From: a virus
Reading direction: 5' to 3' (one strand)
DNA: 64,000 bases
Virus record (IMG/VR): IMGVR_UViG_3300045988_136773
The notes beneath the pieces are model-generated. The model was given only the letters and a program-made list of their open reading frames with translations, searched no databases and had not been told where the DNA came from. Positions 34,347 to 60,764 of the stretch are shown here, piece after piece. The translations under genes and the position numbers were made by a program. How positions within the stretch are numbered: position 1 is the first letter of the stretch; each line of letters opens with the position of its first letter.

Positions 34347-35749
34347 GGGATTTCAGCGTGAACGTACAAATAAAAAATAAATCTGTAAATGCAGATACAG
34401 GCATCCCTACTACGATAATCGGAACATATTCTGGAGAAGTATTAGATGCAAGAATTACAAATAACAACGGCTTAGATATTACTGATGAAGTAATCCATAC
34501 TGTCTTAGAGTCGGATGATTATAAACAGGGTATTGAAAATGGATGGTTCATTGGATTTCTAGGACACCCAGAAGATCCAAATTGTATGGATTTCAAAAAC
34601 GGATGTATCGTCATGACCGATATGTCAATTGACGATAACGGAAAAGTCTATGGTGAATTTAATCTGGTAGGTACACCTGTAGGACAAATTGTAAAGACGT
34701 TTATTGACGCTGGAGTAAAGTTTGGCATTTCCATTCGTGGAGCAGGGGATATTGTCGATAACGCTGTAGATCCTGAAACATTTGTATTCCGTGGATATGA
34801 CTTAGTATCTTTCCCGGCATATCCGGAATCAATCCCAAAGTTTACAGCAATTGCAGCATCTACAAATACAGATGACCGAAAGAAGTATCAATCTGTCTGC
34901 AAGGTGGTTCGGGATAACATTTCTGCAATCACATCCAGTACTGCAATTGACGTAATTCAATCTCAATTTGCAAAACAGTCTGATACATATAAAATGCTTC
35001 AAACACAAAAGGATAAGCTTACTGCATCTACAGAAACCGCATCAGATATAGATCCTGAATTTGCAAAAGAAAAGATTCAAGCAATGACAGATTTATGCAT
35101 TCGCCTTATGGAGTCTACAAAGACACTGTCTCAGGAAAAAGATAAGATGATGCACAATCATGCAAAAGAGACAATCTCTGCAAGCAGAAAGATCAGAACA
35201 TTAAAACGAATTACAAGCAGTCAGATGTGCGATATTATGGGACAGCTCAAATCTGAGCAGTCAGACTATACAGCACTGCAAAAAGAAAATAAACGAATTA
35301 AGACACAGTTATCTGACGTGAAAAAGAAAAACCTTATATATAAACAGAGGGTTGAAGCGAGTGCAGACGAACTTCAAGAAAAGCAAAAGATCATTGCAAG
35401 TCTAAAGTCACAAATGCGTGAAACCGTCACAGCTAGTACAGACTTAGAGACACGCACATCAAACCTTGATGAAACAAATCGAAAGCTACGTTCTGAACTT
35501 CGTACTTGTAAGCAAACTTTGCAGTCATTCCAAGCAGCATATGCAGATATATATGCTTCTGCATTAGGTGTAAATCCAGGTAGTCTTAGTATCACAGCAA
35601 GCACAACTGTAGACGATTTACAGAAAATAGTAAATAGTGCTACAAGCACATCAAACATGGCAACCGCAGATATGGTAGAGCCATTGTATATCATTGATGA
35701 ATGTGATGATACAGACGACTACGAAACAAATGATCTTGTAACAATGTAA
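34343..35749 (+). CDS. putative prohead protease / scaffolding protein
   Basis: 468 aa, immediately upstream of the capsid gene. It has a globular N-terminal domain ('GFLGHPED', 'FGISIRGAGD') and a long Gln/Lys/Glu-rich coiled-coil C-terminal half. LTAST, VTAST and ITAST motifs are present. Confidence 0.5.
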   Translation: MRDFSVNVQIKNKSVNADTGIPTTIIGTYSGEVLDARITNNNGLDITDEVIHTVLESDDYKQGIENGWFIGFLGHPEDPNCMDFKNGCIVMTDMSIDDNGKVYGEFNLVGTPVGQIVKTFIDAGVKFGISIRGAGDIVDNAVDPETFVFRGYDLVSFPAYPESIPKFTAIAASTNTDDRKKYQSVCKVVRDNISAITSSTAIDVIQSQFAKQSDTYKMLQTQKDKLTASTETASDIDPEFAKEKIQAMTDLCIRLMESTKTLSQEKDKMMHNHAKETISASRKIRTLKRITSSQMCDIMGQLKSEQSDYTALQKENKRIKTQLSDVKKKNLIYKQRVEASADELQEKQKIIASLKSQMRETVTASTDLETRTSNLDETNRKLRSELRTCKQTLQSFQAAYADIYASALGVNPGSLSITASTTVDDLQKIVNSATSTSNMATADMVEPLYIIDECDDTDDYETNDLVTM

Positions 35750-35783
35750 TTCCAATATTCCAATTATAGGAGTGAGATAATAC

Positions 35784-37220
35784 ATGACTATTAAGGCAAC
35801 ACATAAGACACCAGCACGGCGTAAGATCACTGCTGGTACAAGCATTACTGCAAATGCACGCACAAAACAAGGTGCAACTCGAAATGCAGCAATGGCAAAG
35901 CTAGATCCACAGCGTAGAGCATTCGCACAGCAGATCATGGCAAACTGCAATCGTATGGGCAAGCGTACATCCATTATGGGTGCAACAAACACCTCTAACA
36001 TTGCAGCACGTCCGGACTTCATGGAGCTCCTGCCGATGTTCGTACAGCAGCTGCTTGTACTGGATGTATTCGGCTCTGTAGCAATGAAATCTCGTCAGCA
36101 ACTGATTCCGTATTTCAAGTTTGTAGCAGAGAACACCAAGGGGGAAACTCAGAGATGTTCTATTCTGTCTACTCCGTTTGTAAACAAACAGGGATTTGAT
36201 CCGAACTTCACTGGTCGAGTAGTAAAGAATGAGATCGTAGAGTCTGCAACTGGTTCTTTCACAACTGGTACTCTGGCATATCTTCCGGTACTGCCGAACT
36301 CTGTAACAATTTCTACCAATCTGGTAGGCGTAACCACTGAGTATACCGATGACGGAGCAGGTTCTATCCTAGACAGCGAGGGTGCATCTAAGGGTTCTAT
36401 CGACTACAGCACTGGTGCAATTAAGTTCACAACTCCGATCACTATCGCAGCTGGTGACACCGTAAAGGCAACTTACCAGTATGATAATGAAACTGTAGGT
36501 CCGAACGCACAGGATGAATATGGTGCACAGATGGCTAAGGGTTATCTGGATCTGGATGAAATCAACCTGGTAGCAGAAGCACACGAACTGGCTTGCTACT
36601 GGTCAATCTACAGTGCATTCGCAGCACAGCAGGAATATGGTGCTAATATTGGCGATATGTCCAAGGACGCAGCATTCTCTGAGCTGACTGCTGAAATCAA
36701 CACTGCTGGTTTCAAGAAGCTGAAGAATGCAGCTGCATACAATCCTGCATATAACTGGGATGCTTCTCCGGTCATGTCTGGTTCTGTTGTACCGTCTGAC
36801 TACATCAATCAGTTTAAGCTGAAGCTGAATCAGGCATCCAACAGCATCTACCAGAGAACCAACCTGGCTAGACCGAACCGTCTGATTGTAGGTACTAACG
36901 TAGAATCTTACCTGCGGATGGTAAACGGATTCTCTTCTGCATCTATTGATGACACTGTAGGTCCGTACAAGTCTGGTAAGCTGGATCAGTTTGAAATCTA
37001 TGTAGATCCGACATATGATCCGAATGAATGGGTAATGTGCTGCAAGTCTAACGACATCCGCAGAAACTCTGCTCTGTTTGGTGAGTACATGCCGTTTACA
37101 AACACTGACGCTATTGGTCTGGCAAACGCATCTGTACAGCAAGGTTACGCTACAATGTACGCTATGGAAATCGTAAATCCGGCTACTATTGCTAGTGGTA
37201 GAATTGTTGGTACTTATTAA
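35784..37220 (+). CDS. major capsid protein
   Basis: 478 aa after the scaffold-like gene. Codon usage shifts strikingly to CTG/CCG/CGT/GGT, typical of a very highly expressed gene. It has a basic N-terminal propeptide-like segment. Confidence 0.7.
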   Translation: MTIKATHKTPARRKITAGTSITANARTKQGATRNAAMAKLDPQRRAFAQQIMANCNRMGKRTSIMGATNTSNIAARPDFMELLPMFVQQLLVLDVFGSVAMKSRQQLIPYFKFVAENTKGETQRCSILSTPFVNKQGFDPNFTGRVVKNEIVESATGSFTTGTLAYLPVLPNSVTISTNLVGVTTEYTDDGAGSILDSEGASKGSIDYSTGAIKFTTPITIAAGDTVKATYQYDNETVGPNAQDEYGAQMAKGYLDLDEINLVAEAHELACYWSIYSAFAAQQEYGANIGDMSKDAAFSELTAEINTAGFKKLKNAAAYNPAYNWDASPVMSGSVVPSDYINQFKLKLNQASNSIYQRTNLARPNRLIVGTNVESYLRMVNGFSSASIDDTVGPYKSGKLDQFEIYVDPTYDPNEWVMCCKSNDIRRNSALFGEYMPFTNTDAIGLANASVQQGYATMYAMEIVNPATIASGRIVGTY

Positions 37221-37267
37221 TCAGACCAATACAGAAAACAGAAAATAACACATGAGGTGATATAGAA

Positions 37268-37660
37268 ATGGCATATACAGTCAAGATCACATACACTGGT
37301 CCGGCAAATCCGGAAGCAATTAAGTTTGCATCTCCGATCTGTCCGACATTTGCACCAACAAACGCTTACATAGATACTCCGGCATATAAGGGTACCGTAT
37401 ATGATACGCATGTAACTGGATTTGGTTTCATTGATCTGATGGAACCATATGCAACTACTGGATTCCCGTACCCAGTACCGCTTGCACAGTTCAAGCTGGC
37501 TGTTGTTGGTAAGGATAACGCTAAGGGTGCTAAGGAAGTAGAGTTCACTGTAGAAAGCTACATGGAAGCATTTTGGTACATGGAAGCTGGTGCGGCTCTG
37601 AAGAATCAAGGCTTTACCGTAGAAGTGAAAGAAAAAGAAGCGGCAACCAGTAAGGAATAA
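37268..37660 (+). CDS. hypothetical head protein (decoration/accessory candidate)
   Basis: 130 aa with the same high-expression codon bias as the capsid gene, directly downstream of it. Confidence 0.55.
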   Translation: MAYTVKITYTGPANPEAIKFASPICPTFAPTNAYIDTPAYKGTVYDTHVTGFGFIDLMEPYATTGFPYPVPLAQFKLAVVGKDNAKGAKEVEFTVESYMEAFWYMEAGAALKNQGFTVEVKEKEAATSKE

Positions 37661-37710: not shown

Positions 37711-38421
37711 ATGACAATGCAAGAGGTTGTATCTCAGGTGTCATTTATGCTGGGATTCCCAGCTAATAAAAATGTAGAGGGGCTTCAAGTAGAGGAAGCA
37801 GTAAACATTGCATTCCGAGAACTGCAACGGTATATGAAAACTCCGGTTGAGAAAACAGTCCCATATTCTCCAAGAATAGACCTGCTCAAAGTAGGAATCG
37901 AAACGGTAAGGGTGCAGTATGTACAAGCTGCATATCCAAGACTAGGCTTAAATCTGACATCCATTGAAAGTGGTAATGTATTTCAAGTTGGTGCGGCAGT
38001 CAATGTTTATAATCCGGTCGGACAAGGCAACATTGTAAATATTGATCCCATCATGAGAGAGATGGCATTAGCTCAGGTACGAAATTGCCTGGCAACAGAT
38101 TTTCAGTGGCATTATGATAATCAGAATCAGGTTGTGTATTGTGCTCATAAAGATCCAGTACCACCTGCGGTAACAATCCGATACATTCCAGTATTACATG
38201 ATGTATCAGAGATAAAAAGCCAAACATGGATCGATTACCTGCTCCGGTTAAGTGAAGCAAACATGAAAAAAGCATTAGGTCGGACAAGATCAAAGTACCG
38301 AGTAGAGGGTTCAAACGTAACTCTTGATGGTGAAACGCTTTTAGATGAGGCAAACACTGAACTAGAAACAATCCGAAATGAACTGAGTCAAATTAGCAGC
38401 AATCTAGTTGTTTTAAACTAA
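37711..38421 (+). CDS. hypothetical head-completion/adaptor candidate
   Basis: 236-aa ORF with RBS GAAGGGAG, in the head module. Confidence 0.5.
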   Translation: MTMQEVVSQVSFMLGFPANKNVEGLQVEEAVNIAFRELQRYMKTPVEKTVPYSPRIDLLKVGIETVRVQYVQAAYPRLGLNLTSIESGNVFQVGAAVNVYNPVGQGNIVNIDPIMREMALAQVRNCLATDFQWHYDNQNQVVYCAHKDPVPPAVTIRYIPVLHDVSEIKSQTWIDYLLRLSEANMKKALGRTRSKYRVEGSNVTLDGETLLDEANTELETIRNELSQISSNLVVLN

Positions 38422-38444: not shown

Positions 38445-38786
38445 ATGAAGATCAAGATGAATCGTAAGGTAGCGGCAAAGTCCGCTGTTAAAGGTCGCAG
38501 AGTAATGGCTGATACTGACGTAGCACCGGAGGCATCTGAACTGTTGTTTGAAGCAGAAGATGTCGCAGATCTGGTGTCAGAAGTTACTGGTGAAGATGTA
38601 GATGTAACCGCAGATGATACTTCTGTAACATTCGATATTGGTGAGGATTCTTACGTTGTAGAGGCAGAGGGTACTGAAGATGCTGTAGAGTCTTGTACCA
38701 CCATTACCCGTAAGAAGAAAGCCGTATCTGCATCTACTAATCGCAGAGCAGGTCGGCAGATTAAGTGTGTAGCACGTCGTAAGTAA
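38445..38786 (+). CDS. hypothetical protein with basic termini and acidic core
   Basis: 113 aa, RBS AGGAGG. It has a 'KKKAVSASTNRR' motif near the C-terminus. Confidence 0.55.
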   Translation: MKIKMNRKVAAKSAVKGRRVMADTDVAPEASELLFEAEDVADLVSEVTGEDVDVTADDTSVTFDIGEDSYVVEAEGTEDAVESCTTITRKKKAVSASTNRRAGRQIKCVARRK

Positions 38787-38819
38787 TCTTACAGTTGCAC
38801 CTTATATATGAATGAATAG

Positions 38820-38861
38820 GCACCTGAGCAGGATATGCACACCTGTTCAGGTGCTTTTTTT
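38820..38861 (+). terminator. rho-independent terminator after the head module
   Basis: 13-bp stem GCACCTGAGCAGG / CCTGTTCAGGTGC (one G-U pair) with a 9-nt loop, then a T7 run. The left arm contains the GAGCAGG motif. Confidence 0.8.
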
Positions 38862-38882
38862 GTTTATATGGAGGAATCAATT

Positions 38883-39821
38883 ATGAGTGAATCAATTAAC
38901 TGTAGTATTTTATCTGATGCTGCTAAGTTTCTAAAGCAACTATCAGAAACATTTTTCAAGCTGATCGATAAGATCTGTGATTCTGGTTTGATGTCAGATG
39001 TCAAACAGGGTAAAGATGGTGAAGTTACCAGTAAACTGCATATTGGTGGAGATATAGCAGAGTGTACAATGAAACCAAATGAAAAGCATAAGGGTGCATG
39101 GGATGTAGTGATCATTCCGAAGGGTAAGAAGAAAATCACACTGACAAATATCCCAGAAAAGAACTTTCAGGATGAATTATTAAAGACGCTTCGTGAAGTT
39201 TACCCGGATGCAGAGTTTCAAGAGATAAAATCATCTCATTCTATGAAGGTAAAACTACAAAAAATCGTATCTGCGAAAGAAATTTCAGTTCGGTGTGTTG
39301 GTATAAATGCCAATTACGCCCCTGCTCAGACACTGGATGATTTGTGCAATGTGCTGAATGATGATGCTTTTCTTGACATGATACCAGAAAATCTTGCAAT
39401 GTTTGAGATTACAGATCTTGGAGATGATTACGTCATCGATGTAACAGATGATTTTGAATGTGATATTGACCTAAGCGTGGTAACTAGCTGTGCACTAACT
39501 GCATTAATTGCTGTAATGAATGAAATCTGGACTGGTAGATTAGATAATGCAACTCTGATTACTTACAGAGATATGCTGATAGCTGATCTAGATGAGCTTA
39601 GTAAGTATGCAGATACTGCAATTTCATATAGTTCAGCGGACCTTTCATGTACACAAGCATATCCAGCAATTCAGGATTACATTTCAGCATTACAATACTA
39701 TAGTTGTAATATATCCTCTGAGCGTGCAGATCCAGTAGAGTCTATATTAGATAATCTTACAGAAAAATGGGAGTCTATTACGCTGGATGATTATGGTGAT
39801 GACAATGTCGTTTGGGAATGA
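38883..39821 (+). CDS. hypothetical protein
   Basis: ATG 38883 follows TGGAGGA. About 312 aa. Confidence 0.55.
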   Translation: MSESINCSILSDAAKFLKQLSETFFKLIDKICDSGLMSDVKQGKDGEVTSKLHIGGDIAECTMKPNEKHKGAWDVVIIPKGKKKITLTNIPEKNFQDELLKTLREVYPDAEFQEIKSSHSMKVKLQKIVSAKEISVRCVGINANYAPAQTLDDLCNVLNDDAFLDMIPENLAMFEITDLGDDYVIDVTDDFECDIDLSVVTSCALTALIAVMNEIWTGRLDNATLITYRDMLIADLDELSKYADTAISYSSADLSCTQAYPAIQDYISALQYYSCNISSERADPVESILDNLTEKWESITLDDYGDDNVVWE

Positions 39822-40218: not shown

Positions 40219-40671
40219 ATGACTGAAAATAAAATTACAGAGACATTGGAAGTTTCTAATATGACAGAGCGGGTTACTGATGCAACAATTACCGAACCTG
40301 CTCCAAAACAAAAGCCAAAACGCGGACGCAGGAAAGCAGATGTTGAACTGAATGTTTCCGAAAAGACAACAACCACTACTACAGAAGTTGTTGCGGAAAC
40401 AGAATCTGAAAAAGCAGTTTCAGTATTATCTGTAACTGGATCTGGATTAAGAGCAGGAAAGACATACACAAATGAAAATGGCATCCGGCTGTATGCATCA
40501 TGTGTAGCAACAAATCCAGCATATCGCTATATGGGTTCAGTTGCTATCTGGTCTGATGATACAATCAACAATCGAGTACGAATTACAGATACTTGTATCC
40601 ATGCTGGTATTCATAGCAAGCTTATCGGATGGGTAAATATCAATGAATTAGGAGATGAGATCAATGTCTGA
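40219..40671 (+). CDS. hypothetical protein with C-terminal SH3b-like domain
   Basis: 150 aa, RBS AAAGGTGG. 'GIRLYASCVATNPAYRYMGSVAIWSDDTINNRVRITD...LIGWVNINEL' looks SH3-like. No transmembrane segment. Confidence 0.45.
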   Translation: MTENKITETLEVSNMTERVTDATITEPAPKQKPKRGRRKADVELNVSEKTTTTTTEVVAETESEKAVSVLSVTGSGLRAGKTYTNENGIRLYASCVATNPAYRYMGSVAIWSDDTINNRVRITDTCIHAGIHSKLIGWVNINELGDEINV

Positions 40672-40783
40672 TGAAAAGGATTTGGAAACACTGACATCGG
40701 AAACTAGTCTGTCGGAGCAGGTTGATACTGTATCTGACGAAATGGAAGTTGAACTGAACAACGGAAAAGGTGATGATGAATAA
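40664..40783 (+). CDS. small acidic ORF (39 aa), translationally coupled on both sides
   Basis: ATG 40664 overlaps the upstream stop, and its stop overlaps the endolysin start (TAATG). RBS GGAGATGAG. It falls below the ORF-track cutoff. Confidence 0.4.
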   Translation: MSDEKDLETLTSETSLSEQVDTVSDEMEVELNNGKGDDE

Positions 40784-41811
40784 TGGCATTTACAAATAGT
40801 CCATTAGTATCCAAAGTACATCTGTCTACAAAGTATAATATCCGAACTGAAAAGATTTCTAAGATTACAATTCACCATGCTGCCGGAGTCATTTCATTTG
40901 AAAACCTGCTCAACTATGTAGCTACAGTAGGTCGTGATATGTCTGCAAACTATGTTCTGAGCGGCGGTAAGCTTGGATTGGTAGTCGAAGAGAAAAATCG
41001 TGCATGGACATCTTCCAGTGCTTGGAATGACCAGAGAGCGGTTACAATTGAAGTTGCGAACTCATCTAAGGGCGGTAACTGGCCAATCTCTGATGCAGAT
41101 CTGAATATGCTCATTAAGTGGTGTGCAGACGTGTGCAAGCGGAATGGTATTCCAAAACTGTACTATGATGGTACAAAGAATGGCACATTGACATTTCACG
41201 AGATGTTTGCAAATACAAATTGCCCAGGACCATACATCAAGTCCAAGGCAAACTACATTTGTCATGAGGTTAATAAACTGATTGGTGCAAAGAGTACAAC
41301 TACAGCGTCCACAAAGCCCTCAGCGTCATCTACAGCAAGTACCAGTACAGGTAAGCAATATCATGTTGTAACTAGCGTATACGGCTATATAAGTGCTTCT
41401 GATGCGGTTTCTGATAAGAACAGAAAGGTAACTGTAAAACCTGGTACCTACTATATCTATAATGAAACATCTACGGCAGTAAATGTTACAAAGACAAAGA
41501 GTTCTCCAGGTGCATGGATTGCTAAGTCTAAAAATGTAACAGCATCTACTAGTTCAAAACCTCAGACTTCAATCCGATATGATTGGAAAAAGGGACAGGC
41601 AGTAAAATTGACAAAGCAGAAAACACAGCTATTTGCAAATGATTCTACTGCTACTCCGGCAGCTATGTTATCCCCTGGTACGTATTATATCTATGATGGT
41701 ATCAAGTGCGGTCTTGGTAGATTTCGTATTACCACAAAAGCTGAAAACTGTGGAAAGACACCAGTGGGGAAATACGTAACTGGATTTGTATCCGCAGACA
41801 ATTTTAGTTGA
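40783..41811 (+). CDS. endolysin: N-acetylmuramoyl-L-alanine amidase (Amidase_2) with two C-terminal cell-wall-binding repeats
   Basis: 'ISKITIHHAAG...AWTSSSAWNDQRAVTIEVAN...FHEMFANTNCPGPY', then a Ser/Thr linker and two repeats that each contain 'PGTYYIY'. Confidence 0.85.
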   Translation: MAFTNSPLVSKVHLSTKYNIRTEKISKITIHHAAGVISFENLLNYVATVGRDMSANYVLSGGKLGLVVEEKNRAWTSSSAWNDQRAVTIEVANSSKGGNWPISDADLNMLIKWCADVCKRNGIPKLYYDGTKNGTLTFHEMFANTNCPGPYIKSKANYICHEVNKLIGAKSTTTASTKPSASSTASTSTGKQYHVVTSVYGYISASDAVSDKNRKVTVKPGTYYIYNETSTAVNVTKTKSSPGAWIAKSKNVTASTSSKPQTSIRYDWKKGQAVKLTKQKTQLFANDSTATPAAMLSPGTYYIYDGIKCGLGRFRITTKAENCGKTPVGKYVTGFVSADNFS

Positions 41812-41845: not shown

Positions 41846-41893
41846 AATCGCCGTGTAAGTCATTCACTGACCTGCATGGTGATTTTTTTTTGT
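41846..41893 (+). terminator. rho-independent terminator after the endolysin
   Basis: AATCGCCGTG / CATGGTGATT stem (with G-U pairs) and an inner 4-bp stem, followed by a T9 run. Confidence 0.65.
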
Positions 41894-41937
41894 TTTTCAC
41901 TCGTTATACATTATGTGCGGAGCAGGAGGTTGTTTCT

Positions 41938-43743
41938 ATGATTAAAATAGTACAAAATGGAAATGTGTATGAACTAGACTTTCGATATGATCCAAAATTG
42001 ATAGAACTTGTGAAAAACGTACCAGGCAGACACTATATCCCACAAACAAAACGATGGGAGATTCCAGTAGACAACTTAGGAAGATTCCTCAATGAAATTA
42101 AGGGAACTGCATATGAATCTCAGGTTCAAACATACTCTGGAGAACACATAAATGAAAACGCACATGTTGAGGTAACAGATAAAATTCCAGATGAAGATAT
42201 TTCTGATATTACACATTATGTCAGAGCAGGCGGTCATTTGTATCCACACCAAATTGACTTTCTGAAATATATGAAGCATCGTCAACGGAATGGATTTATA
42301 CTTGCTGATGAAATGGGATTAGGTAAAACGCTTGAAATTATAAATATGGCGTTATACCACAGAGATGCATATCATTATCAGCACTGCTTAATTATATGCT
42401 GTGTGAATACTGCGAAGTTTTCCTGGAAAGAAGATATTGAAACACACACAAACGGCTGTGAGATAGCATATATCCTCGGTACACGAAAGAAACGCAATGG
42501 TGGGTACTCTTATGGTGGTGGTGCAGAAAAGCTCTCAGATCTAACTACAGGGTGCATGTACGGCAATGTATCCTGCTCCAAGCTGCCATATTTCTTAATC
42601 ATGAATATAGAAGCACTTAGAACACGAGCAGGTCGTGTGTATACGATTGAACAACAACTGATTAAGATGATTCAGCAAGGTCAAATCGGAATGATTGCAA
42701 TTGATGAAATTCACAAAAATGCATCCCCAAAATCAATTCAAGGCAAACGCCTGCTCAATATAAAAAAGAAAACCGGAATTGCAGCTGAATGGATTCCTAT
42801 GACTGGTACACCAATTGTAAATAAACCAACAGATGTATATCTTCCATTAAAACTGATCGATGGTCATACCTATAAGGATTACTGGAGCTGGTGCCAACAT
42901 TTCTGTCTGTACGGTGGTTATGGAGATCATGATATTATAGGATACCGGAATATACCGCAAATGAAGCTCATGCTGAAGCGTAATATGCTTCGGAGATTAA
43001 AAAACGACGTTTTGGAACTTCCAGAAAAGACATATTATACAGAATACGTTGAAAACACACCTGCTCAATGCAAACTCTATACAAAAGTGACAAATGAACT
43101 TGTGTCTGACAGGGATGAGATTGTGCATTCTGTAAATCCATTGGTACGTATGTTAAAGCTTCGACAAGTAAACGGGAGTCCAGAACTTATTGATGATACC
43201 ATATCAATTGATAAATCTTATCTATCAAAGAATGCAAAGCTTGTAAGAGTCATGGAACTGATTGATGATATCATAGATCGTGGAGAAAAAGTTGTCGTAT
43301 TTTCCAACTGGACTGCACCATTAAAAACCTTATATAGATTCATAGCTACAAAATATAAAGTGTGCTGCTTTACTGGTACGATGCCTGAAGAATCCAGGCA
43401 GAAGCATAAAACTGTATTTTTGAACAATCCAGAGTACAAGGTGATGCTTGGTACAATTGGTGCATTAGGGGTAAACCACACACTGACATCTGCAAACAAT
43501 GTTATCTTTTATGATGATCCATGGAATCCTGCAACAAAGCATCAAGCAGAGGATAGAGTGTATCGTATTGGTACTACAAAATCCGTAAATATCTACACGG
43601 TTATTGTAAAAGATACCATCGACGAAGTTGTCAACAATATTTTGAAGAACAAGCAAGATATGTCCAGTTATATTGTAGACAATGGATTGGATATCCGAAA
43701 CAATCCGGAATTGTTTGATATGCTGGTTGGTCATGGTAGGTGA
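41938..43743 (+). CDS. SNF2-family helicase/ATPase
   Basis: 'ILADEMGLGKT' (motif I), 'AIDEIHK' (DExH), 'VVVFSNW', and 'DDPWNPATKHQAEDRVYRIGT' (motif VI). ATG 41938 follows GGAGCAGGAGG. Confidence 0.9.
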   Translation: MIKIVQNGNVYELDFRYDPKLIELVKNVPGRHYIPQTKRWEIPVDNLGRFLNEIKGTAYESQVQTYSGEHINENAHVEVTDKIPDEDISDITHYVRAGGHLYPHQIDFLKYMKHRQRNGFILADEMGLGKTLEIINMALYHRDAYHYQHCLIICCVNTAKFSWKEDIETHTNGCEIAYILGTRKKRNGGYSYGGGAEKLSDLTTGCMYGNVSCSKLPYFLIMNIEALRTRAGRVYTIEQQLIKMIQQGQIGMIAIDEIHKNASPKSIQGKRLLNIKKKTGIAAEWIPMTGTPIVNKPTDVYLPLKLIDGHTYKDYWSWCQHFCLYGGYGDHDIIGYRNIPQMKLMLKRNMLRRLKNDVLELPEKTYYTEYVENTPAQCKLYTKVTNELVSDRDEIVHSVNPLVRMLKLRQVNGSPELIDDTISIDKSYLSKNAKLVRVMELIDDIIDRGEKVVVFSNWTAPLKTLYRFIATKYKVCCFTGTMPEESRQKHKTVFLNNPEYKVMLGTIGALGVNHTLTSANNVIFYDDPWNPATKHQAEDRVYRIGTTKSVNIYTVIVKDTIDEVVNNILKNKQDMSSYIVDNGLDIRNNPELFDMLVGHGR

Positions 43744-43749
43744 TTTATA

Positions 43750-43962
43750 GTGTACCGATATATTAAAGCCGCTGAAGAGCCATCTGCACTGGAAGAAAGC
43801 TTAGATGGTCTAAAAGACGATTTTAATTACATCATGGATGGCTTAGACAAGCTAAGCCGGACTGGTGATGATTCTGCTAAGGCTGCATTGTCTATTGCTT
43901 TAAGTCTTAGTGATGCAATTGAAAATCATATAGAGCAGGTATCTAGTCAAATTTTGAAGTAA
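43750..43962 (+). CDS. hypothetical small acidic protein (MYRYIK leader)
   Basis: 70 aa, GTG start after GGTAGGTGA. Confidence 0.5.
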   Translation: MYRYIKAAEEPSALEESLDGLKDDFNYIMDGLDKLSRTGDDSAKAALSIALSLSDAIENHIEQVSSQILK

Positions 43963-46160: not shown

Positions 46161-46211
46161 AAGAAATAGCCTGCTCTGAGATTGACAACTCGGAGCAGGC
46201 TATTTTTTTTT
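46161..46211. terminator. bidirectional rho-independent terminator between convergent + and - strand genes
   Basis: ATAGCCTGCTC(TGAG) / (CTCG)GAGCAGGCTAT stem, with a T9 run on the + strand and an A/T run on the other side. The two arms are the CCTGCTC and GAGCAGG motif copies. Confidence 0.85.
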
Positions 46212-46948: not shown

Positions 46949-46970
46949 GAAAATCACCATCCTACTATTT

Positions 46971-46999
46971 ATTATACCACGATTGGGTTAATGTGTCAA
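46971..46999 (-). promoter_or_regulatory. consensus sigma-A promoter driving the minus-strand XRE operon
   Basis: The reverse complement reads TTGACA, 17 bp, TATAAT (perfect consensus). Confidence 0.75.
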
Positions 47000-47023
47000 T
47001 GCAATTCTTTATTCCATACCCAT

Positions 47024-47056: not shown

Positions 47057-47082
47057 TTGGGTGATTTTTCTATCAAAATCGC

Positions 47083-47477: not shown

Positions 47478-47503
47478 TCATTACGCAGATAGGATGTATA
47501 AAT

Positions 47504-49648: not shown

Positions 49649-49737
49649 CCAGATTGATAATACAAACCTGCTTTATGCTTAGAGCAGGTTAGTAATTTAA
49701 GTATTCTAAGTAAATTAACAGTGGAGGGTAAACTATT

Positions 49738-51346: not shown

Positions 51347-51420
51347 CTTATGCAGATATCGCACAATCGTTATACATTGTGTAGGGAAGTGTTACACAAT
51401 AACTTGATGAGGTGATATGT

Positions 51421-52290: not shown

Positions 52291-52362
52291 TTGGTAAACC
52301 TTATATACCTGTGACTAATACACACAAGCACTGTGTGTACAACAGGAAAGGTGATATTAATT

Positions 52363-53088
52363 ATGCTGAGATATGTAAAACACAGTCCTATTACTGCATC
52401 TGTGTCTGGTCCAGTTGAACCCGACACTGTATACGAGCTTGCACTGTATATCGAAAACGACGGAAATCTTTACCGTCAAATGATTGTACCTACAATCAAG
52501 AACATGCAGCGTAAGATTAAGTCAGGTAAATATGATGACTCTCAGGCAGTCAAGGCTTGGCAGTATGTTGCTGACGAAGGTGTTCGTCGATATGGTAAGG
52601 AATTCGGCAATGGCGGCAACAGTGTTGCTTGGGTAAACAAGAATACTCGAATCGCCATTGCAGAAGAACTGAAGGATTACTATGATGATCTGGTACAAGA
52701 TCCAGACAGTATTTCATCTGCTACTAAGATTGAAAAGAAAACTGTATCTGCATCTACAAAGAAGTATCGTGCAAAGGGAAAGAAGTCCGTTGAAGCTGCT
52801 AGTGTGATCCAGAATGGTCTGAGTGAATATAAGCCGTGGTCTGGTGCAAAAGACACATGGGAAATCCTGGAGAAGTTTGGAAAGCTGGACGAACTGGAAA
52901 ATTACATTGATGAAATGTTCTATGATGAATCCCGTGGTGAAGGTGTCATTGGTGAAACTGAACTGAATGACCTGCTCCGGTTTGAACCAGAACATATCTA
53001 TGAATATGTAGGTCTATACTACAATCCGGATACTGATGAAGTATCAGATGAACCATTTGACGAAGATGATGAAGGGGACTACGAGTAA
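52363..53088 (+). CDS. hypothetical protein (MLRYVK...ITAS leader)
   Basis: ATG 52363 follows AAAGGTGA. 241 aa. Contains 'KKTVSASTKKY' internally and has an acidic C-terminus. Confidence 0.55.
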   Translation: MLRYVKHSPITASVSGPVEPDTVYELALYIENDGNLYRQMIVPTIKNMQRKIKSGKYDDSQAVKAWQYVADEGVRRYGKEFGNGGNSVAWVNKNTRIAIAEELKDYYDDLVQDPDSISSATKIEKKTVSASTKKYRAKGKKSVEAASVIQNGLSEYKPWSGAKDTWEILEKFGKLDELENYIDEMFYDESRGEGVIGETELNDLLRFEPEHIYEYVGLYYNPDTDEVSDEPFDEDDEGDYE

Positions 53089-53944: not shown

Positions 53945-54304
53945 GTGAAAATTAAAAAAATGCGGATTTATGCCGCAGACGATGATGAATTCACAAGTTC
54001 AAATTATGATCCTGACGAAACATATGATAATGTATCAGACTCACTGGATGATTTATCTGACAGTGTAGACGATATGCAGGAATCTGTAGATGATGCAGTA
54101 GTTGATGAAGATCCAGTCGATATTGAAATGGATAACAACATTGCAAATCACTATATCGCTGAGTGTGAATCATGTCATGGTGTGTTTATTTCTGCCATGG
54201 AAGAAACTGATCAGGAGATTGAAAAGATTACTGGTACCTGTCCACTGTGTGATAAGCCAACAGATCAGTACCTAAAGTGGATCATCAAAGAACTTGAAAA
54301 ATGA
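53945..54304 (+). CDS. hypothetical acidic protein with C-terminal zinc ribbon
   Basis: GTG 53945 follows AGGGGTGA. 'CESCHG...(24 aa)...CPLCD'. Confidence 0.5.
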   Translation: MKIKKMRIYAADDDEFTSSNYDPDETYDNVSDSLDDLSDSVDDMQESVDDAVVDEDPVDIEMDNNIANHYIAECESCHGVFISAMEETDQEIEKITGTCPLCDKPTDQYLKWIIKELEK

Positions 54305-54314
54305 GGTGCGATGC

Positions 54315-54770
54315 GTGGATTGGACAATCTTAATTGTTCCTGTCGCATCTCTGTTATCCGCAGTATCAGTTGCATTGCTGAACAATTGGGATAAGATCAA
54401 TCCCAATAAAAAGCGTGTAACTGACCTGCTCCAACTTGTAACAGCATTAAAAAAGTCCGCTGATGCTACACAGGGTGATGTTAAAAAGCTTGGAGATCAG
54501 CTTACTAACATATCCTCAGCAGAGCGGACTTTGCTGCAAACAAGTATATTAGATTTGTGTCACGGAATACAAAAAGATATTGAGTATGGTGATATTGATT
54601 ACTCAGAGAAACTGAAACAACTTATCATCCTATATCGAGAATATCATGCCTGTGGATTCAATAACCAAGGAAAGCTGTATTTCAATGACACAATCGAGAA
54701 AGCGGCAGAAGATAATAATATATTAGTACATGAATTGATGAATCAGTATTTTTCTGATTATCAACCGTAA
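54315..54770 (+). CDS. membrane-anchored protein (N-terminal TM helix)
   Basis: GTG 54315 follows GAGGTG. 'WTILIVPVASLLSAVSVALLNNW' is a single transmembrane segment, followed by a soluble domain. Confidence 0.5.
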   Translation: MDWTILIVPVASLLSAVSVALLNNWDKINPNKKRVTDLLQLVTALKKSADATQGDVKKLGDQLTNISSAERTLLQTSILDLCHGIQKDIEYGDIDYSEKLKQLIILYREYHACGFNNQGKLYFNDTIEKAAEDNNILVHELMNQYFSDYQP

Positions 54771-54784: not shown

Positions 54785-55162
54785 ATGTGGGATGAATTTT
54801 TTAAATATCTTGTAGCATTTGCGTTTACTGTAGTATCAGCTGCAACCACTACGATTGTACTGCCTGCTCTAGCTAGATGGCTGAAATCTAAGTCGGACAG
54901 TGAAGTTATCAAATCTGGAATCGATGATCTTGCACAGACTACAGGGACCTGTGTAGACTATTTAGAGCAGACGGTTGTAACTGAACTAAAAGCACAAAAC
55001 AAATGGAATTCTGAAACACAGAAAGAAGTTTTGAATATGGCTATTGAGCAGGTTATTACTGGGCTGACAAACGCCACAAAGCGAACCCTGGAAGCTGGAA
55101 ATATTCACGCTACTGTAGAAAGATACATTGAGGCATACATTCAATCAAAAAAGAACCAGTAA
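54785..55162 (+). CDS. holin-like protein (LL-H holin family-like)
   Basis: 125 aa. It has an N-terminal TM helix 'YLVAFAFTVVSAATTTIVLPALARWL' and then an amphipathic region containing 'VDYLEQTVV'. Its size and layout match Holin_LLH. Confidence 0.45.
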   Translation: MWDEFFKYLVAFAFTVVSAATTTIVLPALARWLKSKSDSEVIKSGIDDLAQTTGTCVDYLEQTVVTELKAQNKWNSETQKEVLNMAIEQVITGLTNATKRTLEAGNIHATVERYIEAYIQSKKNQ

Positions 55163-56009: not shown

Positions 56010-56663
56010 ATGAAGATCTATGTTAAATCGTCTGAATCGATTCTTGCATCTAGTTTCAATCGTGCAAGAGCCCATATGAACAGAGAACTGTGTGCATTCA
56101 TTACAGCGTTTCGGGATTCTGATGAATCTGGAAATCCATATTCACTGAAAGAAAAACGACAGAGAAACAAAGAGTTAGAAAGAGAAATTAAGTCATCTGG
56201 TCTAACATATGTCAAAGCAAAAGGCGGATTTATTGAGAATGCCGGGACCACCAATGCTGTGAGAGTCGAAGAGGAGACATTCTGTGTTATTAACAATAGA
56301 TACGCTCCAAATGATTTTATAAAACTTGCGATTCACTGGTGTGGTATGTTTGACCAGGATGCTGTACTGGTCACAGAACCAAATCCAATTCGCAGATCTG
56401 ATGGTCATCCAGATGCAGGAAAGCCGATCGATATCATTGGACGGTATTATGACAAGCATGGTAATGTAGAGATGGAATTTCATAATGCGTCAGTGAAAGA
56501 TGCAGAAGAATTCTTTACTAATCTATACGGTAAAGACTTTGTACTATCATCTACGGATATTCATGCTACAGAAAGCCGTCAAATTTACAGTGTTAGCGGA
56601 AGAGTAATGGCTGCACGAGATTTCAAATGCAAATACCCTGAACTAGTAGATATCGAGGAATAG
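56010..56663 (+). CDS. hypothetical protein (MKIYVK...ILAS leader)
   Basis: 217 aa, RBS GAAGGAGA. Confidence 0.55.
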   Translation: MKIYVKSSESILASSFNRARAHMNRELCAFITAFRDSDESGNPYSLKEKRQRNKELEREIKSSGLTYVKAKGGFIENAGTTNAVRVEEETFCVINNRYAPNDFIKLAIHWCGMFDQDAVLVTEPNPIRRSDGHPDAGKPIDIIGRYYDKHGNVEMEFHNASVKDAEEFFTNLYGKDFVLSSTDIHATESRQIYSVSGRVMAARDFKCKYPELVDIEE

Positions 56664-56667: not shown

Positions 56668-57090
56668 GTGAAACGATATATTAAATGCTCTGTAGAAACA
56701 CCAAGAGCAGGAATCTTTTGGATTATTGACAATCAGATTGTGTCTGTTTACGACGAAGTTAACACTTCTTATAATCCACTGGAGCAGGATGACCTGCTCC
56801 ACAAAGAAATCTGGAACATGCTAAAGCATAATTACAAGTGCAATAACAAAGTAGTTCCTTATGATTTTTACCCAAGAGGTCGGGTGATGATATACCCTGT
56901 AAGGAACAGTTCCGGTGAATTTCAATACTATGATTGTTTGATTTACGGAGATTCTTGTATCTTGAATAATTCAGATTTACGAGATACAATTATTGATGAA
57001 TTTCGACTATATTTGAAATCATGTGAGGTTTCGTTTGAGGGAAAGTTCTCTGTGGACGGCACACACTATACTTGTCATAATTGTAGATGA
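56668..57090 (+). CDS. hypothetical protein, FWI-D / YPRGRV family paralog 1 (MKRYIK leader)
   Basis: 140 aa, GTG start. 'GIFWIIDNQIV', 'HKEIWNML' and 'YDFYPRGRVMIYP', ending in 'YTCHNC'. Confidence 0.55.
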   Translation: MKRYIKCSVETPRAGIFWIIDNQIVSVYDEVNTSYNPLEQDDLLHKEIWNMLKHNYKCNNKVVPYDFYPRGRVMIYPVRNSSGEFQYYDCLIYGDSCILNNSDLRDTIIDEFRLYLKSCEVSFEGKFSVDGTHYTCHNCR

Positions 57091-57793: not shown

Positions 57794-58001
57794 ATCAGAT
57801 TATCACTATTATCCAAAGGTGCACCGATTGCTTATTCTTAAAGATAAATCAACAAAAGAGGATGCAATTGAAACTGCTGTAACATTCTTCAAATCTGGTG
57901 TTGAACTTCGAGAGGATGAAACTTCCTATATGTTCAAACCAGCGTCAGAATCAGATATATGCAAATATTTCTTTATGGAGGATGATAAGTATGCTGAATA
58001 A
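57783..58001 (+). CDS. hypothetical small protein
   Basis: The likely start is TTG 57783, 9 nt after GGAGG. About 72 aa. It overlaps both neighbouring genes. Confidence 0.4.
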   Translation: MAIKSDYHYYPKVHRLLILKDKSTKEDAIETAVTFFKSGVELREDETSYMFKPASESDICKYFFMEDDKYAE

Positions 58002-59589
58002 AGAACAACAGCATGTGGTTGATTCAAATGCAAAACAGATATTAGTACTTGCCGGAGCAGGTACTGGAAAGACAACAGTACTTATATCAAGAGTAGCACG
58101 GCTTGTAGCATCAGGCGTAAAGCCGACAAGTATATTAGGACTTACCTTTACAAATGCAGCTGCATCTGAAATGCGTGAACGATACAAGCGAATATGCAAA
58201 ACTACAGATACTCCGATGTTCTGCACATTTCATGCGTTTTGCTACTCTTTGATTATCCAGGATACTGCCGTAAGAAATGCAATTGGATATAAGGGTATTC
58301 CAGATATTGCGAAAGATGCTGATTTGAAACGCATTGAGATGTCAGTGAAAGCACAGTGTGGAGTGAAATTGTCACATGACGCACTTATGCGAAATACGGA
58401 ACCAGCATCTCTTAAAGGTGCGATGCAGTATCGTGTTTTCCGAAAACAGTATGAAAAGAAGCTAAAGCAAGAAAACCTAATCACATTTGACATTATGTGC
58501 TACGAAGTTGGTAAGCTGTTTGTAGACAATATACCATGTATCCGTCAGTATAAAGATACGTACAAATACATTTTTGTCGATGAATTTCAGGATACAGATC
58601 AGAAACAGTGGGACTTTGTAAGTTCCTTTGCAGATGCAAACCTGCTCGTGGTAGGAGATGCAAAACAGAACCTATACAGTTTCAGAGGAAGTACAAGTGC
58701 TATCATAAAGCAGCTATCTCAGGATAGTAATTGGGAAACAATTAAGTTAAGTCAAAACTACAGATCTACTTCTCAGATCTGTGACTTTTCAAATAAGATA
58801 CATAATTGGGGAGACTCTCCATACAATCTTGTAATTCATAGTGATAGACCTGGATGTGATGTTGTAATGTATCATAGATCATATGATGGTGGCATTCTGA
58901 CAGACAAAGAATTGAAAGTGATTCAAGATTCTATTCATGCTGGAGAAACAGCAGCAGTTCTGTGTAGGTCCAATGCAGAAGTGAAAAATGTAATCAATTC
59001 GTTTGAATTGAATCAAATCCCATATATCACAAAGCAGGTAGATAAGATGTCCGATAAAGAACATATCCTGCTCAGTGCAATTCGTTCAGAACATCTGATT
59101 CCATGGTTGTCTGGAAATCTTACAGCATCAGAGTATACAGAATACATCCGTATGTGTACTTTAATCCCGAAGTATAGAGATGATGAGATGAAGTTTTCAG
59201 AGGTGTATTATAAAAGATTTTCTGAGGAGTTTGACACTATATATGCTATCCGGAAAATCTTAAACTCTGAATGTTTTACAAATGGAAAGGTAATTGCAAT
59301 CTGCAACATTTTGAAAATTCGCACTCCAAAGGATGTTGCACTGGAGCAGGTAAACCACGATGAAGTTATTCTGAAATGTATTGAATATCTAAAATCCAGT
59401 ACAGCACAGGTAAAAGCACCGATCTATATCGGGACCATTCATTCGGTAAAGGGACTAGAGTATGATGTAGTACACCTACTCGGAGTAGGTTCAAAATCAT
59501 TTAATTTGAAAGACGAAGAACAACATAATATTTACTATGTAGGCTGCACAAGAGCAAAGAGTAAACTGTATGTGTGGAAATCAATATAA
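57991..59589 (+). CDS. UvrD/PcrA/Rep-family (SF1) DNA helicase
   Basis: 'LAGAGTGKTT' (Walker A), 'IFVDEFQDTD' (motif II), 'NYRS', 'IGTIHSVKGLEYDVV' and 'YVGCTRAK' (motif VI). ATG 57991 follows GGAGGATGA. Confidence 0.9.
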   Translation: MLNKEQQHVVDSNAKQILVLAGAGTGKTTVLISRVARLVASGVKPTSILGLTFTNAAASEMRERYKRICKTTDTPMFCTFHAFCYSLIIQDTAVRNAIGYKGIPDIAKDADLKRIEMSVKAQCGVKLSHDALMRNTEPASLKGAMQYRVFRKQYEKKLKQENLITFDIMCYEVGKLFVDNIPCIRQYKDTYKYIFVDEFQDTDQKQWDFVSSFADANLLVVGDAKQNLYSFRGSTSAIIKQLSQDSNWETIKLSQNYRSTSQICDFSNKIHNWGDSPYNLVIHSDRPGCDVVMYHRSYDGGILTDKELKVIQDSIHAGETAAVLCRSNAEVKNVINSFELNQIPYITKQVDKMSDKEHILLSAIRSEHLIPWLSGNLTASEYTEYIRMCTLIPKYRDDEMKFSEVYYKRFSEEFDTIYAIRKILNSECFTNGKVIAICNILKIRTPKDVALEQVNHDEVILKCIEYLKSSTAQVKAPIYIGTIHSVKGLEYDVVHLLGVGSKSFNLKDEEQHNIYYVGCTRAKSKLYVWKSI

Positions 59590-59894: not shown

Positions 59895-60285
59895 TGAAGA
59901 GAAAGATTTCGATATTGCAACCCACTGCGGCTTGTTAATCGATACTAAAACTAGACGTGTAGTATCATTGTGCGGAACTATAGCAGATACATATCCGGTT
60001 GTTTACGTTTTACCGGATGTGGACACAAACGATGTCTATCTGTCAGATGATTCAAACTTAATCAAGTATGACAAGTATTGGTTTGATGATCATCTAGGTG
60101 AAGAAGCAGATAGTGAATCTACAAAAGATCTTGTATTTCAGATTCCACTATCAAGATTGAATGCTCTAAGGCACGAGTTGCATTCTCTGTCATCCAGTAT
60201 TAATCTAATTGGGGATTCTATGATAGATACCGAACTGGCTTTTAGAGCATTCTGTGCTGCACTTACTGATGTTCCAAAACAATAA
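59887..60285 (+). CDS. hypothetical protein
   Basis: 132 aa, RBS AGGAGGA. It overlaps the upstream stop. Confidence 0.55.
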   Translation: MNDEEKDFDIATHCGLLIDTKTRRVVSLCGTIADTYPVVYVLPDVDTNDVYLSDDSNLIKYDKYWFDDHLGEEADSESTKDLVFQIPLSRLNALRHELHSLSSSINLIGDSMIDTELAFRAFCAALTDVPKQ

Positions 60286-60298
60286 AGGATATACATAT

Positions 60299-60535
60299 AT
60301 GATTACCCCAAAGTCTGAATCAAAATACAAGATATTCGATGTGTTCAAGATGGATATGTCAATTGGATTCAATGATCCACCTAAATATGAATTCATGCAG
60401 ATACTAGGAATTGATTACCTTAGTCCAACACGAGGTTACTGGTATCATTGTAAGATTGCAGATAAAGTATATAGCATGTCAGAACTTGAAATAACCCATG
60501 CAATTGTAGAAGGGAGATGTCACTATGCGACATAA
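60299..60535 (+). CDS. hypothetical protein
   Basis: ATG 60299 follows AAAGGAT. About 78 aa. Confidence 0.45.
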   Translation: MITPKSESKYKIFDVFKMDMSIGFNDPPKYEFMQILGIDYLSPTRGYWYHCKIADKVYSMSELEITHAIVEGRCHYAT

Positions 60536-60764
60536 AGTAGACAAAGAACACATATTAAGTCTGTGCGAACCTGGAGACTACGGGATTTTTGCACCACCTA
60601 TGAAAGCCCAAGTTGCACTAAATGAATTGTGCAGATATCTTTTAGGCGATGATTGGTATGATACATCAGGTACATCTTGTCAAGAGCAGGTCAATACCGC
60701 GATTGTATATGAAATTGAAAGCCACTATAAAAGAAAGCCTTGGTTATACTGGGGCTACTTCTAA
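60525..60764 (+). CDS. hypothetical protein
   Basis: 79 aa, RBS GAAGGGAG. Confidence 0.5.
   Translation: MRHKVDKEHILSLCEPGDYGIFAPPMKAQVALNELCRYLLGDDWYDTSGTSCQEQVNTAIVYEIESHYKRKPWLYWGYF

Follow-up and report, generated by a model that had tools for sequence, protein, structure and literature searches.

Bacteriophage P1 and its relatives provide the closest described system for the element discussed here, a seven-nucleotide (7-nt) word, CCTGCTC on one strand and GAGCAGG on the other, that crowds one part of a viral genome known from IMG/VR record IMGVR_UViG_3300045988_136773 (a stretch of 64,000 nt, hereafter called the window). As described in [quoted passage not shown] (bioRxiv 10.1101/2021.07.08.451572), the 94.8 kb of P1 hold 50 Chi sites, and Chi is that genome's commonest octamer, on both strands (section 12 of that work). 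These sites lie in several reading frames, are equally dense inside and outside open reading frames (ORFs), and are concentrated where the ends of sequential headful-packaged, terminally redundant molecules fall. The authors of that work propose that RecBCD entering at either injected end meets an active Chi, leading to circularization via the terminal redundancy; P7, D6, and NGUA22 show the same behavior. The Chi words of Firmicutes given in the same source (section 11) are AGCGG in Bacillus subtilis, GAAGCGG in Staphylococcus aureus, and GCGCGTG in Lactococcus lactis.

When the genome of P1 (NC_005856) is run through the scripts used for the window, it yields 50 sites, 31 of them on the top strand, with Chi as the top 8-mer (z = 5.3) and at most 14 copies of any one-mismatch variant; 28 of the sites fall within 36 kb downstream of pac, and 3 in the 32-kb middle. 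A smaller case, run as a Gram-positive control, is the pac phage 80alpha (L210 21392-31574); the S. aureus word GAAGCGG is present there in 6 copies, where ~1.4 would be expected, all of them on one strand and 4.5-15 kb downstream of terS. The original prediction, made from the letters of the window alone, knew of no standard feature that would explain the word found there; for the Chi-like word among its candidates, the Chi concentration of the P1 family is a published precedent. By analogy with that precedent, we put at about 40% the probability that GAGCAGG is a Chi-type word for a helicase-nuclease of the host, placed in the zone where the ends of the virion DNA fall.

The observation itself is confirmed. 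An exhaustive search of both strands of the window gives 41 copies, 20 as CCTGCTC on the plus strand (marked + below) and 21 as GAGCAGG on the plus strand (marked -). One of them starts at 26986, 40 lie in 34740-60690, and the remaining 60.7-64 kb have none. A count by eye had given 35; each of those 35 coordinates is correct, and the total was short of the copies at 40451-, 42224-, 46872+, 54863+, 55046-, and 56705-. The claim of massive over-representation stands, since shuffling that preserves dinucleotides leads one to expect 3.74 +/- 2.13 copies (maximum 11). A maximal-order Markov model ranks the word first among the 7-mers of the window, at z = 8.0 with the runner-up at 4.3, and none of its 8-, 9-, or 10-mer extensions stands out. 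Shuffling synonymous codons within each gene, which keeps the proteins and the codon usage of every gene, leaves 11.6 +/- 2.1 copies (maximum 17), and the excess therefore sits in the DNA and not in the proteins. Calculations of both kinds had been proposed as checks along with the word, and a coding explanation of the count fails under the second.

Other dominant words in the panel of compared loci are only tandem 15-bp repeats. CTCAAGT and AGATTTG are the top 7-mers of two unrelated phage loci because of arrays of 24 and 18 such units (L054 15688-16039 and L073 3505-3766, respectively), which are probably sequences coding for pentapeptide repeats.

The word is strict at all seven positions: within the zone that is rich in it, 46 exact copies compare with 0-6 for each of the 21 one-mismatch variants. 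Outside the seven letters, the bias that had been noted is real, and it is weaker than had been stated, with A at -1 in 26/41 copies, C at +1 in 19/41, and a purine (R) at +2 in 36/41. Over 83 independent sites of the clade to which the phage belongs, the consensus is W-CCTGCTC-Y-R, with C rare at -1, G rare at +1, and C absent at +2; the flanking bases add little. GAGCAGG is thus a short, asymmetric word with four G among its seven letters, and it has the G-rich, strict make-up of a Chi sequence. Literature searches for the word itself yielded nothing apart from primer sequences.

Neither frame nor direction governs its use. The copies of the window are read as EQx (10), G/R-A-G (9), xLL (11), PAx (4), and S/T-C-S (2), the peptides listed at the outset, and 5 are intergenic. 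ORFs hold 35 of the 40 copies within the rich part of the window, sense and antisense in about equal number. Over the whole zone, 24 copies are on the plus strand and 28 on the minus strand, and the two orientations are interleaved at random, as had been noticed (27 runs, 26.8 expected), with Poisson-like spacing (coefficient of variation 0.99). Non-coding DNA of the zone carries 3.06 copies per kb and coding DNA 1.44 per kb. It is strongly supported that CCTGCTC/GAGCAGG is selected as a DNA word and not as a peptide, as the original prediction had it, because of the codon shuffle, the five frame and strand classes, a non-coding density no lower than the coding one, and gains of the word that alter amino acids (see below).

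How is the word distributed over the genome? The window belongs to the ~146-kb genome of a gut myovirus, whose assembly appears circular. ENA contig ERZ28573323 scaffold_51 (145,990 bp) matches it exactly throughout the overlap, and contigs from other samples, 144.8, 146.0, and 147.1 kb long, end at differing points relative to the same genes. Such breakpoints suggest a circular assembly, as expected if the genome is circularly permuted. The map beyond the window was composed from pieces of identical or ~98%-identical strains (L019, L103, L104, L120, L207, L015, and L111); copy numbers there may vary by one or two between strains, and positions are window-equivalent coordinates, negative to the left.

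On this map, a rich zone extends from 34.7 kb to at least ~81.2 kb, with 52 copies in 46.6 kb (1.12/kb), and a poor zone of at least 84.9 kb has 3 (0.035/kb), which is at or below background, as composition alone predicts 0.058/kb. The contrast is 32-fold (binomial P = 2.7e-20). Within the window, the poor zone covers 1-34739, the portal, neck, sheath, tape measure, baseplate, and fibers, and it continues for at least 47.6 kb further left: there are no copies in -9.6 to 0 kb, in -19.5 to +1 kb, or from -37.6 to -47.6 kb, and single ones at -23.8 kb and -36.1 kb. The rich zone covers 34740-64000 of the window, all of its 40 copies there lying in 34740-60690. The stretch of 60.7-64 kb is a local hole, which ends at 65.2 kb, and copies are found again from ~65.2 to ~81.2 kb. 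The regional confinement that had been described is therefore correct inside the window, and the right-hand 26 kb are not its limit. The left edge is steep, with counts per 4 kb climbing from 0 to 11, and on the right the zone ends in a long tail.

The genes on either side do not account for this border. The rich zone holds the capsid and lysis genes together with early, replication, and anti-defense genes, and its right flank has PAPS-reductase/Dam, four YopX genes, MazG, a second SNF2 helicase, an N6/N4 methyltransferase, an SbcC-like ATPase, a sigma factor, and an array of 13 transfer RNA (tRNA) genes. The poor zone includes DNA polymerase A, the clamp loader, RecA, a ligase-like protein, the terminase, the portal, and the entire tail. 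With late and early genes mixed in the rich zone, the partition follows neither gene function nor timing, and the labels given earlier to its two parts are inaccurate: the poor part is not a tail module only, since the polymerase, clamp loader, RecA, and terminase genes belong to it, and in the rich part late genes (capsid, lysin) stand beside early and replication genes. The content of G+C (GC) is alike in both zones (37.7% vs 37.1%), and no other k-mer shows a contrast of comparable size. Far smaller contrasts exist: the poor zone has the palindrome TTGCAA at ~2.2 times the density of the rich zone (72 sites in 62.8 kb vs 20 in 39.1 kb), GCGC is rarer in the rich zone (3 vs 16 sites), and TGATCA is commoner there (14 vs 4).

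Relatives show where the word came from. The contig L011, of 122 kb and also from IMG/VR, has 77% identity to the window in the helicase and ~71% in nucleotides, and the same word is its top one, with 21 copies in 21.8 kb (z = 7.6), the first of them homologous to that at 34740. In its polymerase region the word is scarce (L105, 1 copy in 20.7 kb), and in the right flank of an L011-like genome it is plentiful (L206, 6 copies in 8.8 kb); the partition is therefore conserved. The individual sites turn over, as a check in a related phage was expected to tell: in the aligned regions, 8 are common to both genomes, 12 are specific to the window, and 8 to L011. Under a stricter mapping, 7 of 18 sites are conserved, and the empirical baseline is 19% when all 7-mers are taken and 15% when they are matched for GC (P = 0.04). 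Selection keeps the density of the zone more than fixed positions, and the word would act by dose, not by position.

More distant syntenic relatives, L109 (from a metagenome-assembled genome (MAG) of Clostridium sp., 62% helicase identity) and L001-L010 (~55%), have 1-3 copies per ~21 kb. In these outgroups, the codons orthologous to word sites carry the word in 0/19, 1/14, and 0/12 cases. Most of the gains altered the amino acid, at variable positions; in the helicase, RAG replaced KRG or KNG, SCS replaced SAP or NEP, and PAQ replaced SVQ or KYQ. Across 945 kb of the wider family, the density of the word is 0.17/kb. GAG-CAG-G (Glu-Gln-x), read in a single frame and orientation, makes up 75 of 136 coding copies there, at positions common to homologous loci. 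This occurrence is ordinary coding background. The enrichment in all frames and on both strands is thus a derived trait of one clade.

What, then, might be gained from a strict word under selection as DNA, unequally partitioned, with the partition conserved while the sites turn over, of recent origin in one clade, and quantitatively close to Chi in P1, all of which are matters of direct observation? Under the Chi-type reading, the word would be the control sequence of an end-processing helicase-nuclease of the host, of the AddAB or RecBCD type, and the rich zone would be the stretch downstream of pac that holds both ends of each headful-packaged, terminally redundant molecule. The pac site would lie near 34-38 kb of the window, with packaging proceeding rightward. 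An enzyme entering at either injected end would soon meet a correctly oriented copy, degradation would stop, and the end would be handed to recombination. The incoming genome would be protected in this way, and circularization or recombination-primed replication would be promoted via the terminal redundancy. Such a model accounts for an unbroken zone that disregards gene function, for the need for both orientations, for dose mattering more than position, and for the steep left edge.

Several observations weigh against membership of the word in the Chi family, in which it is a candidate by analogy. A Chi word is defined by the host enzyme that reads it, and in the host chromosome it is enriched and co-oriented with replication, as are 89.7% of the GAAGCGG copies of S. 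aureus. The host here is probably a Gram-positive gut bacterium, because the capsid protein is ~25% identical to those of large myoviruses of Streptococcus, Bacillus, and Listeria and the nearest likenesses of the amidase are in phages of Streptococcus, Faecalibacterium, and Ruminococcus. When bacterial genomes were scanned with the endolysin, the matches were a further phage contig, inside a Clostridium MAG, and a weak one from the rumen. Beside the 13-tRNA array lies a gene for a TadA-like deaminase (L111 16327-20907 and 19566-20021) with 71-74% identity to chromosomal genes of low-GC Clostridia, and this gene is therefore probably derived from a host. Two candidate pieces of Clostridia chromosomes reached through it (L114-L119) carry the word at ~1 per 20 kb, which is background; their GC of 28-31% suggests that they are probably not from the host.

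Packaging raises difficulties of its own. The large terminase gene (a weak match) is located at -3.2 to -1.2 kb, 36 kb from the edge of the zone; no pac-like repeat array was found at that edge (32-40 kb); and the acidic ORF at the edge, considered as small terminase, has no sequence match in the PDB and gave an unusable model (predicted local distance difference test score, pLDDT, of 50). The phage encodes its own RecA, RecU, and SbcC-like proteins, so that it need not depend on host recombination, and any such dependence may differ from that of P1. The syntenic sister clades, which presumably package in the same way, are without any dominant word. Furthermore, the counts for the partition omit 14.5 kb of the genome (83.9-98.4 kb), including the far boundary of the rich zone, which consequently makes up 32-44% of the genome, and the density across the zone is a plateau with holes, with no clean decay. 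A simple gradient falling off from a single point is itself weakened by this plateau, which reaches ~81 kb.

Other functions for a repeated word have to be considered alongside Chi. Could it be the site of a sequence-specific DNA-binding protein, encoded by the phage or co-injected, that works as an entry ratchet, a coat or condenser, or a domain silencer? The word arose only in the clade of the window and L011, which would fit the acquisition of a new reader gene, and a function on double-stranded DNA would explain the absent preference for orientation. Unannotated genes specific to the clade are at hand (40219-40671, 48188-48631, 50663-51346, 52333-53088, and 54294-54770), as are two XRE repressor genes and perfect divergent promoters inside the zone. 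However, the clade-specific genes have no match in NCBIfam, and no candidate protein has a recognizable DNA-binding fold. Sites of transcription factors usually allow some degeneracy, but no one-mismatch variant rises above background here, and the copies, mostly in ORFs, have Poisson-like spacing, no orientation to transcription, and weakly conserved individual positions; we regard such a protein as an unlikely explanation. A low, though not negligible, probability likewise attaches to the case in which the word is no host Chi at all and one physical domain of the genome is acted on by an undescribed system that reads it, encoded by the phage or co-injected. Such a system may be a ratchet or protector for DNA that enters in a particular phase, or a self-marking exemption from a nuclease; the sudden appearance of the word in one clade, through amino acid changes, would then mark a new reader gene among the unannotated ORFs of that clade. 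An enzyme that modifies or nicks the word (a methyltransferase, PAPS-reductase/Dam, or an HNH nickase), leaving modified bases or T5-like interruptions, is less easily defended. Nickases and the restriction-modification enzymes of Type IIS, IIG, and III typically have a strict, asymmetric specificity for 7 bp, so the form of the word agrees with them, and the genome does encode N6/N4 methyltransferase, Dam-family, PAPS-reductase-like, and HNH-like proteins. The regional 32-fold enrichment is left unexplained, we know of no modification enzyme whose targets are enriched, and the strain L016, which lacks the PAPS-reductase/Dam cassette, keeps the word at full density. Single-strand interruptions of the T5 type are all on one strand, but the sites here are divided about equally (24 vs 28), so the word does not follow the strand rule of T5 nick sites. 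We judge a modifying or nicking enzyme improbable. Targets of restriction are normally avoided in phage genomes, and a word enriched ~20-fold over its expectation from composition does not show the avoidance expected of the target of a restriction-modification or bacteriophage exclusion (BREX) system.

The remaining readings look to history or to the proteins. Phage genomes are commonly mosaic, and a contiguous partition that ignores gene function might be the footprint of a rich zone taken from a donor with the word genome-wide and a poor zone from a lineage without it. Against such an origin, the two zones have equal GC and no comparable contrast in k-mers; identities to L011 and L109 are similar on either side of the edge, and the relative similarities to three other lineages are equal across it. 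L011 holds the same partition after ~29% nucleotide divergence, sites continue to be gained in single lineages, also by amino acid changes, and the proposal only shifts the question of enrichment to the donor. A mosaic footprint is thus very improbable, and among the four candidates that accompanied the original prediction, it is the one disfavored by composition, relative similarities, and ongoing gain and loss, the Chi-like word being the best fit. As for the word being the commonest way to encode Leu-Leu or Glu-Gln, the mild background of the wider family, with its 0.17 copies per kb and its 75 of 136 coding copies in the form GAG-CAG-G, is what one would expect of such a by-product. The window departs from it in every respect: 41 copies are observed where the codon shuffle gives 11.6, five classes of frame and strand are used about equally, non-coding density exceeds coding density, and the poor zone has 3 copies with the same codon usage. 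The codon shuffle, the frame analysis, and the two densities refute a coding artifact, for which the chance is practically nil.

The copies of the window can be followed from left to right. The lone one in the poor zone, 26986-26992 (-), reads EQV in ORF 26905-27159 and is absent at the orthologous codons of L011 and L109. The zone opens at 34740-34746 (-), G-A-G in the protease/scaffold-like ORF 34343-35749, at a position kept in L011, and 36355-36361 (-) is again G-A-G, in the major capsid gene 35784-37220. In the adaptor-like ORF 37711-38421, the word is D-L-L at 37881-37887 (+) and Y-L-L at 38238-38244 (+). R-A-G in ORF 38445-38786 comes from 38746-38752 (-); the intergenic 38826-38832 (-), conserved in L011, is one arm of a hairpin at 38815-38859; and ORF 38835-39821 has P-A-Q at 39321-39327 (+). 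Two copies lie in ORF 40219-40671, P-A-P at 40297-40303 (+) and the newly listed R-A-G at 40451-40457 (-). The endolysin gene 40783-41811 is preceded by an intergenic copy, 40715-40721 (-), and includes N-L-L at 40905-40911 (+).

The SNF2/HARP helicase gene, 41890-43743, illustrates the different ages of the sites. E-Q-E at 41920-41926 (-) is followed by two sites that are conserved in L011, R-A-G at 42224-42230 (-), new to the list, where outgroups have KRG or KNG, and S-C-S at 42572-42578 (+), where outgroups have SAP or NEP. R-A-G at 42626-42632 (-), R-L-L at 42750-42756 (+), and P-A-Q at 43060-43066 (+) occur in the lineage of the window only. E-Q-V is found both at 43933-43939 (-) in ORF 43750-43962, conserved in L011, and at 44897-44903 (-) in the acidic ORF 43982-45202. 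Between convergent genes, 46170-46176 (+) and 46193-46199 (-) are the left and right arms of a terminator-like hairpin at 46161-46208, whose 20-pair stem is made from this inverted pair of the word and which is the strongest terminator-like hairpin of the region; that the word occurs in non-coding hairpins had been seen in the sequence. The minus-strand XRE gene 46598-46960 has 46696-46702 (+), E-Q-V on the coding strand, and 46872-46878 (+), G-A-G on the coding strand and not listed before.

Further right, T-C-S occurs at 47405-47411 (+) in the small ORF 47338-47517, and the intergenic 49682-49688 (-) lies upstream of the primase gene 49738-50655, in which 50265-50271 (+) encodes D-L-L, a peptide that L011 has in different codons. 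The HNH-like ORF 50663-51346 has E-Q-A at 50801-50807 (-). D-L-L is also the reading of 51912-51918 (+) in the HD-domain ORF 51412-52290 and of two copies conserved in L011, 52971-52977 (+) in ORF 52333-53088 and 54425-54431 (+) in ORF 54294-54770. Both copies of ORF 54785-55162 are additions to the list, P-A-L at 54863-54869 (+) and E-Q-V at 55046-55052 (-), as is R-A-G at 56705-56711 (-) in ORF 56668-57090. The same ORF has E-Q-D at 56782-56788 (-) and D-L-L at 56793-56799 (+), the left and right arms of the coding palindrome GGAGCAGGatgaCCTGCTCC; the palindrome is perfect over 56781-56800 and can be written GGAGCAGG-atga-CCTGCTCC. In the UvrD-type helicase gene 57898-59589, the copy 58055-58061 (-) was verified to fall in the Walker A motif (G-A-G-T), and it is accompanied by N-L-L at 58641-58647 (+), I-L-L at 59067-59073 (+), and E-Q-V at 59344-59350 (-). 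The last one in the window, 60684-60690 (-), is E-Q-V in the Tad8-family ORF 60525-60764.

The genes around these sites have features of their own. From the left, the window encodes T4-type portal, sheath, tape measure, and baseplate proteins, then the protease/scaffold-like, major capsid, and adaptor proteins, an Amidase_2 endolysin, the SNF2/HARP helicase, RecU, XRE repressors, primase, and an HD protein, and finally a weak match to S-adenosylmethionine (SAM) lyase, the UvrD-type helicase, and the Tad8-family protein; tRNA genes are absent within it. Megablast with 20 kb found no close relative among deposited phages, protein searches gave distant ones only, and the search with the SNF2 helicase matched a widespread module rather than close relatives. 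The gene order is unusual, as the sheath and all of the tail module come immediately after the portal and neck (363-1844 region), and the protease/scaffold-like and major capsid genes (34343-37220) stand ~33 kb beyond the portal and neck, after the tail fibers. Two very large ORFs in the middle of the tail module, 8254-11820 and 11867-14710 (+), of 1188 and 947 amino acids, have no match in PHROGs or Pfam.

The acidic ORF 43982-45202 (+) encodes 406 amino acids, is very acidic, and has no family match. Its central domain of ~95 amino acids is 96.8% identical in protein and 96.4% in DNA to L011 12131-12415, while the neighboring genes are at ~71% in DNA, and word-negative relatives lack the ORF. 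Its appearance is that of a DNA-mimic or anti-defense module exchanged recently. As a reader of the word it was rejected, being an acidic, mimic-like protein and not a DNA binder.

Control and defense genes are numerous. At 46971-47111, beside the XRE genes 46213-46551 and 46598-46960 (minus), two perfect 12/12 sigma-70 promoters (TTGACA-17-TATAAT) point in opposite directions, and the region looks like a switch-type early control region. The genome family also encodes a Bro-N/ANT antirepressor, a CI-type repressor, many small helix-turn-helix proteins, and a Spo0A_C-like protein, and a relative has a PemK toxin (L207 10001-10786 and neighbors, L205 7789-8667). The ~132 kb examined showed no integrase, and the set hints at a lifestyle like that of P1, temperate or as a plasmid-prophage. 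The defense and counter-defense set varies between strains: it includes the weak SAM-lyase match (56010-56663) and the Tad8-family protein (60525-60764), the PAPS-reductase and Dam cassette is replaced by C5-methylase fragments in strain L016, and one strain also has an Mrr-like nuclease and an N6_Mtase/Methylase_S gene (outside the window, L015 12454-13928; L207 1276-2265 and 6455-7324). Two further insertions were met: the family A DNA polymerase bears one of LAGLIDADG type (L103 1738-5367), and a terminase-like gene of one strain has an intein with an HNH domain (L021 5202-8396).

Why should such a word be of interest? If it is of the Chi type, it is the first candidate Chi for an uncultured lineage of gut Firmicutes, obtained from a phage genome alone, and the end-zone strategy of P1 would extend to large phages of Gram-positive gut bacteria, in a more extreme form given the 32-fold contrast and the sites bought with changes in proteins. 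A dominant, strict, zonal word would then predict the mode of packaging and the side of pac from sequence, and matching such words to bacterial genomes skewed for them would be a new route to link phages with hosts. It would also be an unusually clean natural example of selection at the DNA level overriding protein sequence. If it is not Chi, it points to a sequence-reading system, so far undescribed, that acts on one domain of a phage chromosome.

A comparison with known systems places the word as follows. As in P1, a short asymmetric word is the top k-mer, distributed nearly at random over both strands and in several frames, its non-coding density is equal to or higher than the coding one, and one part of the genome is dense while another is nearly empty. 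Unlike in P1, the word matches no described Chi, the density is 1.1/kb instead of 0.53/kb, and the contrast is 32-fold, against roughly 8-fold in P1. Moreover, the zone is one-sided and bounded by a steep edge, whereas that of P1 straddles pac, and the phage is a 146-kb myovirus with its own RecA, RecU, and SbcC-like genes and a terminase gene far from the edge. With the Firmicute Chi words read by AddAB, which have 5-7 nt, GAGCAGG has in common that it is asymmetric, G-rich, and strict; with AGCGG and GAAGCGG it shares an AGC core and a terminal GG, a resemblance in composition only, and it is identical to none of them. Phage 80alpha likewise has an over-represented word in a confined stretch, downstream of the small terminase gene and pac, but with 6 copies in one orientation, compared with more than 50 here in equal orientations.

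Two more distant systems share some of these properties. The DNA uptake sequences (DUS) of Neisseriaceae and the uptake signal sequences (USS) of Pasteurellaceae, of 9-12 nt, are found genome-wide in naturally competent hosts, where the competence machinery reads them. They too occur about once per kb, in both orientations and all frames, with inverted pairs that double as terminators, and it may be counted as a likeness that recently acquired DNA is poor in them. In contrast, the present word has 7 nt and keeps to a single zone of a phage; candidate bacterial DNA has it at background level, and it does not dominate sister phages. We know of no uptake process that would read GAGCAGG in a phage, and a word of one phage zone, not genome-wide in a competent host, is no DNA uptake sequence. 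The stoperators of cluster A mycobacteriophages and the C1 operators of P1, of 13-17 bp, are mismatch-tolerant and mostly intergenic, and stoperators are oriented with transcription. Many asymmetric copies scattered over a phage genome are common to them and to our case, but here the word is a strict 7 bp, 35/40 copies lie in ORFs, orientation follows no rule, and positional conservation is weak. Dispersed repressor operators were rejected for this 7-mer, mostly in ORFs and about equally sense and antisense. That a phage may crowd a strict recombination word of host type into one part of its genome is already known from the P1 family; new here are the word, the probable host group, the twofold higher density, the sharper, one-sided partition, and the recent origin in one clade, with protein changes.

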